Shown one piece after another: positions 48,709-63,716 of a stretch of 64,000 nucleotides of DNA. Location: assembly GCF_055900595.2 (NCBI RefSeq), contig NZ_CM148325.1; one strand, given 5' to 3'. Below the pieces are notes generated by a model that was given only the letters and a program-made list of their open reading frames with translations, did no database searches and was not told where the DNA came from. The position numbers and the translations under genes were made by a program. Position 1 is the stretch's first letter. Each line of letters starts with the position of its first letter.

Positions 48709-49473
48709 TCAGAAATTAAATTTGATGGAGTAGATTATCGCATCCTGGTAAAAATCTTCGCCCAGTTTGTCATCCGCATAACGATACTGAATCCCTGTGG
48801 TGATGTGTGAAGTTGCATTCCACCAAAGTGCGACGGCACCGTTCAGACCTTCTTTGCCGCCATTACCTGCCGCGTAGGTGGCATCACGATCAAACTCGTA
48901 CTCGTTCCAGTTGGTGAGGGTGAATTTCTCACTGCCCAGCATAAAGCTGTAACCTGCAACCCAACCGGCGACATAACCGTTATCGCCGGTATAATAGGTT
49001 TGGTCTGTATAGCGTTTTGCAAAGAACGGTTTGAACCACCAACCGCTGCCGGTGAAATTGTAGCCGATCCCGTAAAGGAACATATCGTCATGGAAATTCA
49101 CACGATTCGCAGAACCGTAGGTGCCATACGCATGCAAGTAGAGATTAAATCCGGTGTCACCCAGGTAAATACGGTTGGTATTTTTAAATGTATAACGCTG
49201 CTCGCTACCCTGTTTATCATGACGATCATTATAAAAGTTTTCCCAGTCGAAGAACCCGTACATTTCTCCCCAACTAAAGTTAGCGCCGCCTTCCAGTTCC
49301 AGATATCCAAAATCATCTTTGTGTGATTTGGTCGACGATTTCTCAGTGGTTCTGCTAGTCCAGTCAAGATAATGAATACCTATATCAGCAAAACCGCCTT
49401 TAAATTCTGCATGGGATACTGCTGGTATCGCCAATACAAAAGAGAGTGTCAGAGTAAAAAGATGTTTTTTCAT
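48709..49473 (-). CDS. yfeN: outer-membrane beta-barrel protein YfeN
   Basis: 254-aa ORF with signal peptide and C-terminal aromatic residue (F); synteny. Confidence 0.85.
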   Translation of the reverse strand: MKKHLFTLTLSFVLAIPAVSHAEFKGGFADIGIHYLDWTSRTTEKSSTKSHKDDFGYLELEGGANFSWGEMYGFFDWENFYNDRHDKQGSEQRYTFKNTNRIYLGDTGFNLYLHAYGTYGSANRVNFHDDMFLYGIGYNFTGSGWWFKPFFAKRYTDQTYYTGDNGYVAGWVAGYSFMLGSEKFTLTNWNEYEFDRDATYAAGNGGKEGLNGAVALWWNATSHITTGIQYRYADDKLGEDFYQDAIIYSIKFNF

Positions 49474-53078: not shown

Positions 53079-53135
53079 GCAGATAGCAAAAAAGCGCCTT
53101 TAGGGCGCTTTTTTACATTGGTGGGTCGTGCAGGA
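53079..53135. repeat. 57-bp direct repeat copy 1: terminator hairpin plus 3'-terminal fragment of tRNA-Lys
   Basis: Identical to 53235-53291 (gcagatagcaaaaaagcgcctttagggcgcttttttacattggtgggtcgtgcagga); diverges after tgcagga. Confidence 0.8.
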
Positions 53136-53234: not shown

Positions 53235-53291
53235 GCAGATAGCAAAAAAGCGCCTTTAGGGCGCTTTTTTACATTGGTGGGTCGTGCAGGA
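53235..53291. repeat. 57-bp direct repeat copy 2 (terminator plus authentic 3' end of lysV)
   Basis: Identical to 53079-53135; overlaps the 3' 17 nt of lysV. Confidence 0.8.
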
Positions 53292-56597: not shown

Positions 56598-56768
56598 TCT
56601 CTGCTTTTTGCCGCTTTTGTAATACAGTCTACGTCCGGGTCAGCGCCGCCTGGTGAAAGCATCATTGGATGAAAAATCGGCAACAGGCTGGCCTCTGTTT
56701 GCTTCGCGATGCGAATAAACTTATTATTTGTGTGCCTGAAAACCCCGATCAGTGAGAGTAGTGTACTC

Positions 56769-58958
56769 ATGTTTGTGGAGCATAACCTGATAAAAAATAT
56801 CAAGATATTCACACTAGCGTTTACGCTCACCGTGGTACTTATTCAGCTATCCCGTTTTATTTCGCCACTTGCCGTTATCCATTCCAGTTATATCTTTTTG
56901 GCGTGGATGCCACTGTGCGTAATGCTGGCAATCTTGTTTATCTTTGGCTGGCGCGGTGTCGTTCCTGTTTTAGGCGGGATGTTTTGCACCAATCTGTGGA
57001 ATTTTCATCTCTCTTTTTTACAGAACTCCGTCATGCTCGGCAGCCAGACGTTTGCAGTCCTGTGTGCCTGTGCAATATTACGCTGGCAATTGGGAACGCG
57101 TTGGCGTTATGGTTTGACCAGCCGATACGTCTGGCAACGTCTCTTCTGGCTTGGTTTGGTGGCACCGATTGGCATCAAATGCAGCATGTATCTTGTGGGG
57201 AATTTCTTTGATTTTCCGCTAAAGATATCTACCTTTTTCGGCGATGCGGATGCCATTTTCACGGTCGTTGATTTGCTAAGCCTTTTCACCGCAGTGCTGA
57301 TTTACAACATGCTGTTTTACTATCTCACCCGCATGATTGTAAGTCCCCACTTTGCGCAGATACTGTGGCGCAGGGATATCGCTCCGTCGTTGAGCAAAGA
57401 GAAACGCGTATTTACCTTAAGCTGGCTGGCAGCTCTTAGCGTGCTGCTACTTCTGATGTGTACACCGTATGAAAATGACTTCATTGCCGGTTACCTGGTA
57501 CCTGTTTTCTTTATCATCTTTACCCTCGGGGTCGGTAAGCTTCGCTATCCGTTTTTAAATCTCACCTGGGCTGTTTCAACGCTTTGCCTTCTGAATTACA
57601 ACCAGAACTTTTTGCAAGGGGTACTAACCGAATATTCGCTGGCATTTATTCTCGCGGTGCTGATTTCCTTTAGTGTTTGCCTGCTCTATATGGTGCGCAT
57701 TTATCATCGTAGTGAATGGCTTAACCGACGCTGGCATTTGCAGGCGCTGACCGATCCGTTAACGCTCTTACCCAACTTTCGCGCGTTGGAACAAGCACCA
57801 GAGCAAGAGGCTGGCAAGAGTTTTTGCTGCCTGCGTATTGATAACCTTGAGTTTATGAGTCGTCATTACGGGTTAATGATGCGCGTTCACTGTATCCGCT
57901 CAATTTACCGTACGTTAATGCCGCTGATGCAGGAAAACGAAAAGTTGTATCAATTGCCGGGGAGTGAACTGCTATTAGTACTGAGCGGGCCGGAAACGGA
58001 AGGGCGACTCCAGCATATGGTTAACATCCTGAATAGTCGGCAAATTCACTGGAACAATACCGGGCTGGATATGGGCTATGGTGCCGCCTGGGGGCATTTC
58101 GATGGAAATCAGGAAACCCTGCAACCCTTGTTGGGGCAGTTAAGCTGGCTGGCGGAGCAATCCTGCGCACATCATCATGTGCTGGCGCTGGATAGCAGAG
58201 AGGAGATGGTTTCCGGGCAAACCACTAAACAGGTGCTATTGCTGAATACCATTCGCACGGCGTTAGATCAGGGTGATTTGCTGCTCTACGCCCAGCCAAT
58301 TCGCAACAAAGAGGGTGAAGGTTATGATGAGATCCTCGCGCGACTGAAGTATGACGGCGGCATTATGACCCCGGATAAGTTTCTGCCCCTTATTGCTCAG
58401 TTTAACCTTAGCGCGCGTTTTGATTTGCAAGTGCTGGAATCCTTGTTGAAGTGGCTGGCAACACACCCTTGCGACAAAAAAGGTCCGCGCTTTTCAGTCA
58501 ATTTAATGCCGCTCACGCTGCTGCAAAAAAATATCGCCGGGCGGATTATTCGTCTGTTTAAGCGTTATCACATCTCCCCGCAGGCGGTCATTCTTGAGAT
58601 CACCGAGGAACAGGCGTTTTCTAACGCAGAAAGCAGTATGTACAACATCGAGCAGCTGCATAAGTTTGGTTTCCGGATTGCGATTGATGATTTTGGCACC
58701 GGCTATGCCAACTACGAACGGCTAAAGCGTTTGCAGGCTGATATCATCAAAATTGATGGCGTCTTTGTGAAAGATATCGTCACGAACACGCTGGATGCGA
58801 TGATTGTGAGATCAATTACCGATCTGGCGAAAGCGAAGTCATTGAGTGTGGTCGCGGAGTTTGTCGAGACGCCACAGCAGCAGGCGCTATTGCATAAGCT
58901 CGGGGTGCAATATCTGCAAGGGTATTTGATTGGTCGCCCTCAGCCATTAACTGATTAA
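56769..58958 (+). CDS. pdeA: membrane-anchored c-di-GMP phosphodiesterase-type protein (EAL domain; GGDEF-like region without GGDEF motif)
   Basis: Internal ATG of ORF 56709-58958; product MFVEHNLIKNIKIFTLAFTL... (729 aa); multi-TM N-terminus; C-terminal EAL-domain motifs (YAQPI, DDFGTGYANYERL). Confidence 0.88.
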   Translation: MFVEHNLIKNIKIFTLAFTLTVVLIQLSRFISPLAVIHSSYIFLAWMPLCVMLAILFIFGWRGVVPVLGGMFCTNLWNFHLSFLQNSVMLGSQTFAVLCACAILRWQLGTRWRYGLTSRYVWQRLFWLGLVAPIGIKCSMYLVGNFFDFPLKISTFFGDADAIFTVVDLLSLFTAVLIYNMLFYYLTRMIVSPHFAQILWRRDIAPSLSKEKRVFTLSWLAALSVLLLLMCTPYENDFIAGYLVPVFFIIFTLGVGKLRYPFLNLTWAVSTLCLLNYNQNFLQGVLTEYSLAFILAVLISFSVCLLYMVRIYHRSEWLNRRWHLQALTDPLTLLPNFRALEQAPEQEAGKSFCCLRIDNLEFMSRHYGLMMRVHCIRSIYRTLMPLMQENEKLYQLPGSELLLVLSGPETEGRLQHMVNILNSRQIHWNNTGLDMGYGAAWGHFDGNQETLQPLLGQLSWLAEQSCAHHHVLALDSREEMVSGQTTKQVLLLNTIRTALDQGDLLLYAQPIRNKEGEGYDEILARLKYDGGIMTPDKFLPLIAQFNLSARFDLQVLESLLKWLATHPCDKKGPRFSVNLMPLTLLQKNIAGRIIRLFKRYHISPQAVILEITEEQAFSNAESSMYNIEQLHKFGFRIAIDDFGTGYANYERLKRLQADIIKIDGVFVKDIVTNTLDAMIVRSITDLAKAKSLSVVAEFVETPQQQALLHKLGVQYLQGYLIGRPQPLTD

Positions 58959-59017
58959 CAGGCGTAAAAAAAGCAGGGAATTATCCCCGGCTTTTGTGGC
59001 TGATGACAAACAGAAAA

Positions 59018-59049
59018 ATGCCTGATGCGCTACGCTTATCAGGCCTACA
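59018..59049. repeat. REP element between pdeA and nupC
   Basis: tgcctgatgcgctacgcttatcaggcctaca, same unit as at 35938-35969. Confidence 0.7.
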
Positions 59050-59100
59050 TGGAATTGAAGCCGGGGAATTATCCCCGGCTTTTTAATTAATGAATTGGAC

Positions 59101-60303
59101 TTACAGCACCAGTGCTGCGATTGACGCAGACAGCACACTCACCAGAGTAGAGCCGTAAACCAGTTTCAGACCGAAGCGAGAAACCACGTTACCTTGTTCT
59201 TCATTCAGGCCTTTAACCGCACCGGCGATAATCCCGATAGAAGAGAAGTTAGCGAAGGAAACCAGGAACACAGAGATGATGCCTTCAGCACGCGGAGAGA
59301 GCGTGGAAGCAATTTTCTGCAGATCCATCATTGCAACGAACTCGTTGGAAACCAGTTTGGTCGCCATAATACTGCCCACCTGCAGTGCTTCACTGGAAGG
59401 AACACCCATCACCCACGCAACCGGATAGAAGATGTAGCCCAGGATGCCCTGGAAGGAGATGCTGTAGCCAAACCAGCCAGTCACAGTGGCAAACAGTGCG
59501 TTCAGCGCAGCGATCAGGGCGATAAAGCCGATCAGCATCGCGGCAACGATAATAGCAACTTTGAAACCTGCCAGAATGTATTCACCCAGCATTTCGAAGA
59601 AGCTCTGACCTTCGTGCAGGTTGGACATCTGAATGTTTTCTTCACTGGCATCAACACGGTAAGGGTTGATCAGTGACAGCACGATAAAGGTGCTGAACAT
59701 GTTCAGTACCAGCGCCGCAACGACGTATTTCGGCTCCAGCATCGTCATGTATGCACCAACGATGGACATCGACACGGTGGACATCGCCGTAGCTGCCATG
59801 GTGTACATACGATTGCGGGAGATTTTGCCGAGGATATCTTTATAGGCAATAAAGTTTTCAGACTGACCCAGAATCAGAGAGCTGACGGCGTTGAAGGATT
59901 CCAGTTTGCCCATACCGTTGACTTTGGAGAGCAGGAAACCAATTGCGCGGATAATCACCGGCAACACGCGAATGTGCTGGAGAATACCAATCAGCGCAGA
60001 GATAAAGACGATTGGGCACAGCACTTTCAGGAAGAAGAATGCCAGGCCTTGATCATTCATGCTACCAAAGACGAAGTTAGTCCCTTCGTTGGCAAATCCG
60101 AGCAGTTTCTCAAACATTTCGGAGAAGCCTTTCACGAAGCCCAAACCAACGTCGGAGTTCAGGAAGAACCACGCCAGTAACACTTCGATAACAAGCAGTT
60201 GAATAACATAACGGATACGAATTTTTTTGCGGTCGCTGCTTACCAGCAGTGCGAGAATCGCAACAACGGCAAGTGCCAGTACAAAATGAAGGACGCGGTC
60301 CAT
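59101..60303 (-). CDS. nupC: nucleoside:H+ symporter NupC
   Basis: Internal ATG of ORF 59101-60342; product [24 protein letters not shown]... (400 aa). Confidence 0.92.
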
Positions 60304-60567
60304 ATTTGCTCCAAATATGAGGCAGGTTAAATTTCCGTGCACATTCTATGTAACATGGTTAAGGAAAACGAGATCTGACACACACTATAATGACGTCCTG
60401 TGACAAGCTTCAAAAATAGTGAGCTGTCATACATTTCTGCTATGTTGTGTATGGAAGCTGAAAGTTATGTAAATGTGCTAACATTAAACATAATCACAAC
60501 ATTCAAGTCATCAATCTTTTCGTCGTCATAGTTCTGGTCTTTCAAAGAAATCATCACAATCCATTTA

Positions 60568-60589
60568 AATGAATTTGATAATCATTCTC
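60568..60589. promoter_or_regulatory. Fur box-like operator upstream of mntH
   Basis: aatgaatttgataatcattctc resembles Fur consensus GATAATGATAATCATTATC; about 50 bp upstream of mntH start. Confidence 0.6.
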
Positions 60590-60604
60590 GTTTGACATAG
60601 CATG

Positions 60605-60626
60605 AAACATAGCAAAGGCTATGTTT
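60605..60626. promoter_or_regulatory. MntR operator (perfect palindrome) upstream of mntH
   Basis: aaacatagc-aaag-gctatgttt, 9-bp perfect inverted repeat ending 12 bp upstream of mntH ATG. Confidence 0.7.
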
Positions 60627-60629
60627 TAG

Positions 60630-61877
<1,248 letters not shown>

Positions 61878-62018: not shown

Positions 62019-62345
62019 TTAATGGCGATGCCCATGTCCGCGGCCCTTTCCGCGATGATCATCACGATCGCGCCAGCCTTCACGATAGCCACGCTCATAG
62101 GCTTTACGCTTATCCCAGCCACGGTGGTAGCCATTATCATGACGCCACCAGCGGTTCTTACGCCATTCATAATTGCGATGCCAGTAGTCACGGTCGCGCC
62201 AGTGACCACCGTCCCAGTAATTACCGTAATGATCGCGATCGCCAATTTGTAATTTGATTGATGGCAGTAGGGTGATTTCACCTGCGTTTGCCGCAAGCGG
62301 GGTAAATGCCATCAGGGCGGCCGCCAGAAACAGTGACCTGAACAT
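62019..62345 (-). CDS. ypeC: periplasmic W/R/H/D-rich protein YpeC (DUF2502)
   Basis: 108-aa ORF with signal peptide and repetitive WxxRD/YxRxW composition; synteny. Confidence 0.85.
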
Positions 62346-62459: not shown

Positions 62460-63716
62460 CTAAACGTTATCGTGGGGTGGCTGTTGCTTCGGACGATTGA
62501 CCATCATCATCGGCTTACCGGCTAATAACAGCCATGCAGGAAGCATGACGATACAGAGCAGCGGTAGCAATGTGGTGTTAGGGACAACAACCGCAGCCAT
62601 AAATAGACTTAACCAGCCATCGCGTGTTACCACCAGCACGATGCCGAGAATAGCGCAGGAAACGGTTATTGCCGCCGGGACAGCGGGAACGTGCTCATGT
62701 AGCATCAATCCTAATGCCACGCCGACAAACACTGCCGGGAAGATTCGCCCACCGCGAAAGCCGCTGGCGGCAGCAACCACGAGAGCGGCAAGTTTAATCA
62801 CTGCCAGCAAAAAGTAATCGCTGGTGCTGAAAGCCTGATTTGCCACCATCTGCTGCATCTCATCCAGCCCTTTAAATAGCGAAACCGGTCCAGCAATAAC
62901 CCCCAGAATACCGAGAATAAATCCGCCCACTCCCAGCATTAGCACCGGATTTTTAATCTGATGCATCATCGCGTGCAACCGTGGCAGACACCATACGGCA
63001 ACCATCCCTGCTGCGATGGCAATCGCCGCCACAATTGCACCGCTGAGAATATCGGTCATCTCCATCTGCCCATAATGCGCAATGGGCAGTGAAAAATGAG
63101 GATGGAAAAATAATCCGGTAGTAAGTGCACCAGCTGCTGCGGCCATTAACGGCGCAAAGAGACGGTCCCATAGCGGAACCTCATTACTGCCATTTAAGGT
63201 TTGCGAAAATATCAACGCCGCCGCAACAGGTGTGCCAAACAGCGCGCCGATGGTTCCGGCAGAGGCTAAAATAGTCCACTCCATTCGGTTGACGCGCGGT
63301 AACAGACGAGCGCCAATGGCGACGGCAAGGGCGATATTGACGGTCATGATCGGATGTTCCGGCCCCAGGCTGACGCCGCCAGCAAGACCGAGAATTAATG
63401 CTACGATAAGTCCTGGTAGCGCAGAGGGCGGAACGGGTGCGCCGATCAGCGGTTCACAGGCGGGGTCTGGTCCAGCATGCCCCTGGCTGAAACGGATAAC
63501 CAACCCCACCGCAATACCCGTTAGCGTTAATATGGCGATGATCCAGAAAGGTGAATCCTGGGCTATTCCCAGAGTTCCCGGCAGTCGTTGCCAGAGCAGA
63601 GTCTGTAATACCGAGGCGATTTTCATCACCACAATCAGAATAAGACTGGACGCAATCCCAATTGCCACGGCGGGGAGTGATAATAACAACATGGTTCTGG
63701 CTCGCGGATGGAGCAT
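62460..63716 (-). CDS. yfeO: ClC-type chloride channel-family membrane protein YfeO
   Basis: 418-aa polytopic membrane ORF; synteny next to glk. Confidence 0.88.

Follow-up and report, generated by a model that had tools for sequence, protein, structure and literature searches.

A Fur operator cluster and an MntR inverted repeat in the control region of Escherichia coli mntH

Fur and MntR sites upstream of mntH

Positions 60565 to 60626 of the window, by which we mean the whole 64-kb stretch of E. coli DNA that was analyzed, can be assigned with a probability of about 93% as the operator region of the mntH promoter, comprising Fur and MntR sites. The Fur/MntR (and OxyR) control region of mntH is already known and is encountered here in a minority E. 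coli haplotype. Indeed, the initial annotation had called the arrangement a textbook case and not novel, correctly so, as dual repression of mntH by Fur and MntR is stated in the literature (PMC8632737). That repression is taken from published work; the presence of the sites, the degree to which they exceed chance, their scores, and their conservation come from the present analysis.

The control region corresponds to the nupC–mntH intergenic segment, which is 397 bp long and 100% identical to that of E. coli strain Z0117EC0005. Of 5426 complete E. coli genomes, 5424 have the segment, in most cases at 95 to 99% identity. According to the ORF list, the neighborhood consists of pdeA/yfeA (56709-58958, + strand), nupC (59101-60303, −), mntH (60639-61877, +), ypeC (62019-62345, −), and yfeO (62460-63716, −). 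The identity of the 412-aa regulated gene, read as mntH in the initial annotation, is confirmed by the matching E. coli RefSeq records, in which it bears this name and its product is an Nramp-family divalent metal transporter. A Shine-Dalgarno sequence, GAGG (60629-60632, +), can be read 6 nt before the ATG at 60639 and is conserved in alignments. Beyond the 3' end of nupC, strain Z0117EC0005 has an IS421 transposase gene where the window has pdeA (junction at about 58958-59101), so the window does not derive from the arrangement of that assembly. The genes pdeA and nupC are convergent, with a perfect GC-rich inverted repeat (59058-59081), probably a bidirectional terminator, between them. Elsewhere in the window, two identical copies of a 27-nt hairpin, AAAAAAGCGCCTTTAGGGCGCTTTTTT, occur at 53088-53114 and 53244-53270, at a distance of 156 bp.

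The MntR site is the inverted repeat AAACATAGC-aaag-GCTATGTTT at 60605-60626, composed of aaacatagc (60605-60613), aaag (60614-60617), and gctatgttt (60618-60626). A repeat search found the 9-nt arms to be 100% complementary, in a 9-4-9 arrangement with an ATAGC-N4-GCTAT core, and the 3' end of the palindrome falls 12 nt before the mntH ATG. The pattern AAACATAGC-N4-GCTATGTTT has no other occurrence in the window even when three mismatches are allowed (0.03 expected). To score the site without circularity, we took the dps, mntS/rybA, mntR, and mntP regions of K-12 and searched them for ATAGC-N4-GCTAT, which occurs upstream of dps, overlapping the 5' end of rybA/mntS, and twice upstream of mntP. 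These four sites were used to build a symmetrised matrix from which mntH was left out. Of the genes concerned, mntS, mntH, and mntP are regulated by MntR, and dps is presumably also a member of the MntR regulon. The training sites were chosen by their similarity to the palindrome, near genes regarded as MntR targets, so the matrix does not depend on mntH orthology but does depend on the motif. With it, the mntH palindrome scored 29.1 bits, as high as any of the training sites. The next hit in the window reached 12.8 bits, and in 200 Markov-1 random 64-kb sequences the maximum averaged 11.5 bits, with a highest value of 22.5. The perfect 9-bp repeat noted in the initial annotation is therefore present exactly where it had been placed, and it passes the matrix scan that had been suggested as a check. 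A full-text literature search with the palindrome string returned unrelated papers only, but published work does state that MntR:Mn represses mntH (PMC4361602) and that, in both E. coli and Salmonella, MntR acts through an inverted repeat of the mntH promoter (PMC3327659). The mntR gene itself is located outside the window and is present in 5421 of the 5426 complete E. coli genomes. On the strength of its perfect repeat, its matrix score, and its conservation (see below), we designate the palindrome an MntR operator.

Upstream of the palindrome, the Fur-like string aatgaatttgataatcattctc occupies 60568-60589. It contains a core Fur box, GAATTTGATAATCATTCTC, at 60571-60589, which agrees with the consensus GATAATGATAATCATTATC at 15 of 19 positions, and it overlaps a 7-1-7 unit, TGATAATcATTCTCg, at 60576-60590. 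The bare consensus count is not discriminating, because the score of 15/19 is tied with two other positions in the window, 44472 and 49368; for this reason we replaced it with a matrix. For the training set of the Fur matrix, which excluded mntH, we used the 11 E. coli regions with DNase footprints that are given in Table 3 of Chen et al. 2007 (PMC2189734). The coordinates of these regions were converted to NC_000913.3, and recognizable Fur boxes were confirmed in them. With this matrix, 60571-60589 was the top site of the 64-kb window at 17.85 bits, a score for which 0.07 equally good sites are expected per random 64 kb. Genuine footprinted Fur sites gave leave-one-out scores of 7.6 to 22.3 bits, which puts the mntH site in the middle of the range. 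Moreover, the 19-mers starting at 60565, 60571, and 60577 scored 10.9, 17.85, and 14.3 bits, respectively, and this 6-bp phasing is typical of E. coli Fur clusters (Chen et al., PMC2189734). Judged by these three overlapping 19-mers in a 6-bp register, 60565-60595 is a Fur operator cluster.

The position also agrees with an earlier prediction. In K-12, the information-theory scan of Chen et al. gave mntH, as its strongest Fur site, one of 19.9 bits made up of two walkers over 25 bp; it lies at −56 relative to the start codon, at K-12 coordinate 2510784 (PMC2189734). Coordinate 2510784 is window position 60583, the exact center of the 7-1-7 unit. The claim of a Fur box-like site upstream of mntH is thus borne out by its first rank in the matrix scan, which had also been proposed as a check, and by its match to the published −56 site. 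In Table 4 of Chen et al., mntH carries neither a footprint nor a gel-shift flag (PMC2189734); Fur represses an mntH promoter-lacZ fusion, and mntH is counted among the known Fur targets (PMC4676285).

The second-best match to the Fur matrix in the window, GATAATGAATACCTATATC at 49368-49386 (16.1 bits), has weaker neighbors at 49215-49242 and 49302-49320, in a stretch that appears AT-rich. An ORF of 254 aa (48709-49473, −), divergent from one of 277 aa, contains this match in its 5' part.

Predicted promoter geometry and the OxyR-like block

A consensus promoter scan predicted a −35 hexamer, TTGATA (60575-60580, +), and a −10 hexamer, TAGCAT (60598-60603, +), with a spacing of 17 and 9/12 matches in total. 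The TTGATA lies within the Fur site and is invariant in 79 aligned promoters, the promoter itself being a prediction. Across genera, T1, A2, and T6 of the −10 hexamer are invariant and the middle varies (TAGCAT, TAACAT, TAATAT, TAGCTT), the pattern that would be expected of a real −10 element. Counting from this hexamer, the predicted +1 is at about 60610-60611. On the predicted geometry, the Fur cluster would extend from about −46 to −16, over the −35 element, and the MntR repeat from about −6 to +16, over the start site. A gap of 9 nt lies between the two sites. Fur and MntR repress mntH independently (PMC8632737), and the absence of overlap between their sites fits this reported independence.

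These positions suggest how repression might operate. Under iron sufficiency, Fe2+-Fur dimers would bind the overlapping Fur boxes at 60565-60595, centered on the core at 60571-60589, and since the cluster contains the TTGATA, RNA polymerase would be excluded. Under manganese sufficiency, Mn2+-MntR, a dimer of the DtxR family, would bind the inverted repeat at 60605-60626; because the repeat starts just past the −10 hexamer and covers the predicted +1, either open-complex formation or promoter escape would be blocked. The −35, −10, and +1 positions are predictions, and so the steric mechanism that follows from them is a prediction as well.

The K-12 transcription start table of Kim et al. 2012 lists weak mntH starts with 5' UTRs of 147 and 186 nt (PMC3415461), which correspond to window positions 60492 (5 reads) and 60453 (11 reads). 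There is no start near 60610 in that K-12 table (PMC3415461); the cultures were probably grown in conditions that repress the regulated promoter. For the Klebsiella mntH orthologue, the accessible portion of the Kim et al. 2012 data holds no start. The same study reports a K-12 start in the nupC direction at window position 60651 (−), with a 348-nt UTR and 13 reads (PMC3415461). This start is inside the first mntH codons, and its transcript would cross the entire operator region in the antisense direction. A proximal nupC start is found at 60336 (−), with a 33-nt UTR (PMC3415461).

Two further motifs in this interval were considered and set aside. A perfect TTGACA hexamer at 60592-60597, in the −35/−10 spacer, is created by the strain-specific A at 60595, is not conserved in other genera, and by inspection has no −10-like hexamer 16 to 18 bp downstream. 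The same A creates a third half-site, ACATAGC (60595-60601), which is likewise not conserved in other genera and is direct rather than inverted. Both are regarded as incidental.

The OxyR tetrad consensus is ATAGnTnnnAnCTAT-N7-ATAGnTnnnAnCTAT. By a hand count against this consensus, the segment 60528-60564, ATAGttctggtCTTTcaaagaaATCAtcacaatCCAT, matches 14 of the 20 specified positions, which points to an OxyR-like site; it would span −83 to −47 and abuts the promoter. A conserved block at about 60527-60553 in the 79 aligned promoters overlaps it. An OxyR site would have four ATAG/CTAT-type elements at a spacing of 10 to 11 bp next to the −35 hexamer; of the corresponding elements here, the first three are conserved and the fourth is not. 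The initial annotation made no mention of this block. A review describes separate MntR, Fur, and OxyR sites in the mntH promoter, which is induced by H2O2 (PMC8632737), and the OxyR-like site would account for that induction. Relative to K-12, the block has five substitutions (60531, 60533, 60541, 60545, and 60554), such that the first element reads ATAG, against ATAA in K-12, and the second CTTT, against CTAT.

Conservation, ypeD, and alternative readings

To place the two sites in a wider context, we collected 80 mntH loci, one genome per species, from Escherichia, Citrobacter, Salmonella, Enterobacter, Klebsiella, Kluyvera, Buttiauxella, Raoultella, Atlantibacter, and others. An alignment was made of 79 non-redundant 200-nt upstream regions representing about 25 genera, and mean column conservation was calculated. 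It was 0.60 in the far upstream region (60439-60540), 0.98 in the Fur core (60575-60589), 0.83 in the −35/−10 spacer (60590-60597), 0.93 in the −10 hexamer (60598-60603), and 0.976 in the MntR repeat (60605-60626). At all 80 orthologous loci the MntR matrix gave at least 27.5 bits, with the site starting 31 to 35 nt before the ATG, except at one locus with a local duplication (−50). The best Fur score over the 80 loci had a median of 19.1 bits, and the offset of the Fur site from the MntR site was fixed at 27/28 or 33/34 nt. A modest addition to what is known emerges from this comparison. The perfect dyad is lineage-specific, being confined to Escherichia, Citrobacter, Salmonella, and Kluyvera, with most of the others having GCTATATTT or GCTATATCT as the right arm. 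The left half-site and the 4-nt spacer, on the other hand, are essentially invariant across the roughly 25 genera, with one spacer substitution. Conservation is also moderate in another block between nupC and mntH, GAAAGTTATGTAAATGTGCTAAC at 60459-60482, which may have a part in the regulation of nupC.

Among E. coli genomes, 5246 of 5426 have an exact match to a 28-mer that spans the palindrome. In five E. coli haplotypes compared, SNPs occur within and upstream of the OxyR-like block and in the spacer at 60590-60597, and one of the five has two outer Fur box changes (60573 and 60587). None of these five haplotypes has a SNP in the palindrome, the −10 hexamer, or TTGATAATCATT.

The same DNA overlaps a small ORF. 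In K-12 and O157, ypeD (b4819 and 29 aa in K-12) is annotated at the equivalent of window positions 60569-60658 (+). In the window, a TGA at codon 9 (60593-60595), due to the A at 60595, ends the frame early and leaves a remnant at 60569-60595 (+); a second stop, TAA, follows at 60644-60646. The A allele, in the exact 30-mer context of the window, is carried by 288 of 5426 E. coli genomes, and the G allele by 3363. The codons of ypeD are the operators themselves: ATG-AAT-TTG-ATA-ATC-ATT-CTC, within the Fur box, gives MNLIIIL, and AAA-CAT-AGC-AAA-GGC-TAT-GTT, within the palindrome, gives KHSKGYV. Across the 79 orthologous loci, the frame reaches mntH in 35, meets an early stop in 35, and has no ATG in 9. 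In the 44 loci with a broken or ATG-less frame, the DNA motifs are intact.

YpeD has been detected by ribosome profiling and is reported to be conserved in Salmonella and Citrobacter, so that its homologues, together with its annotation in K-12 and O157, could suggest that purifying selection on the overlapping peptide, rather than on operators, maintains this DNA. The broken or missing frame in 44/79 loci with the motifs unharmed, the codon-9 stop in the window, and the truncating allele in 288 E. coli genomes are difficult to square with that idea, which we consider barely credible. The conserved peptides MNLIIIL and KHSKGYV are merely translated operators. Indeed, given that the frame is broken or absent in so many loci while its codons coincide with the operators, the amino-acid conservation of YpeD may be explained by operator constraint alone, which is a second modest addition of this work.

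A different proposal would have both functions coexist. The ypeD start codon lies upstream of the predicted regulated mntH promoter, and ypeD could then be expressed only from the weak upstream starts at 60453 and 60492. The operators would double as translated ypeD coding sequence, Fur and MntR would additionally serve as roadblocks on read-through transcripts, and translation of ypeD, whose frame has a 20-nt overlap with the mntH start, could couple to or tune translation of mntH. We regard this arrangement as improbable. If it were true, the TGA allele of the window would be a natural ypeD knock-out with both operators intact.

The remaining rival readings accept the motifs and dispute what they do. 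The palindrome might function at the RNA level, as a hairpin of the mntH leader that, for instance, serves as an attenuator or masks translation, instead of as a DNA operator. If fully transcribed, the segment would fold into an 11-pair hairpin (−14 kcal/mol, z = −4.5), and the weak upstream starts in K-12 would transcribe it. Nevertheless, the 51 distinct orthologous sequences contain no compensatory changes; seven of the nine pairs are invariant, and the two variable pairs are broken in 36/51 and 9/51 sequences. The 4-nt loop is conserved as strongly as the arms. It is the sequence that is conserved, and not the pairing, which argues for a protein operator. Moreover, a scan of the region found no terminator-like site, and a search of Rfam matched no family, the sole hit being a chance snoRNA (E = 0.2). 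The conserved −10 hexamer puts +1 in the left arm, so that one half of the stem would be missing from the main transcript, and the palindrome motif also occurs upstream of unrelated MntR-regulated genes. The hairpin reading is accordingly given very little weight. That the palindrome is an operator for some regulator other than MntR has next to no probability, since its core is shared with the upstream regions of dps, mntS, and mntP, the latter two being MntR-controlled according to the literature (PMC4361602), and the inverted repeat has been assigned to MntR (PMC3327659).

The Fur-like block, for its part, could have been kept only as a −35 or upstream promoter element, with iron regulation being indirect or exerted elsewhere. 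The TTGATA lies within it and part of its conservation could stem from that hexamer; the consensus match is just 15/19, the table of Chen et al. has no direct-binding flag for mntH (PMC2189734), and some predicted high-scoring Fur sites are unoccupied in vivo (Beauchene et al.). Conservation, however, runs 9 nt past TTGATA, through ATCATTCTC, in the dyad TGATAAT-c-ATTCTC, and the block combines the top matrix score in the window with phased sites. In addition, Fur represses mntH promoter-lacZ fusions, and mntH is one of the known Fur targets (PMC4676285). A purely promoter-related role is thus very unlikely, and we retain the assignment of adjacent Fur and MntR operators.

Comparison with known Fur and MntR systems

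The mntH region is established as a point at which iron, manganese, and peroxide signals are integrated to set manganese import, a control relevant to oxidative-stress survival and virulence in enterobacteria. In addition, it is useful as a calibration or positive control: the initial annotation had located two genuine operators, already studied by experiment, by eye and to the nucleotide.

The closest known system is the mntH promoter of E. coli K-12 and Salmonella, reportedly described by Patzer and Hantke in 2001 and by Kehres et al. in 2000 and 2002; the primary papers with binding experiments are said to be Patzer and Hantke 2001, Kehres 2002, and Waters 2011. It shares with the window the gene, its neighbors (nupC, ypeC, and yfeO), the Fur box, and the MntR inverted repeat. 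Over 60565-60638 the sole difference from K-12 is position 60595, an A here, in the −35/−10 spacer. Outside that interval the window has a synonymous T at 60644 and the five substitutions in the OxyR-like block. All of these differences leave the Fur core and the palindrome untouched.

The K-12 sites of mntS/rybA, mntP, and dps have the same ATAGC-N4-GCTAT core and match mntH at 14 to 15 of 18 arm positions, with different spacer sequences; only the mntH site is a perfect 9+9 palindrome. The mntS site overlaps its promoter and the annotated 5' end of RybA, a geometry comparable to that predicted for mntH, and mntS is likewise repressed by MntR (PMC4361602). The two mntP sites, in contrast, are about 360 to 420 bp upstream of the mntP start codon, and the MntP exporter, unlike mntH, is induced and not repressed by MntR (PMC4361602). 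As for Fur, the classical boxes of iron-uptake promoters (entC, fhuF, fepD-entS, sodA, fur, and others) belong to the same 19-bp GATAATGATAATCATTATC family and show the same 6-bp overlaps; they also overlap the promoter, as is predicted for mntH. Compared with these classical boxes, the mntH box has a degenerate left third (GAATTT for GATAAT), and at 17.85 bits it is not among the strongest.
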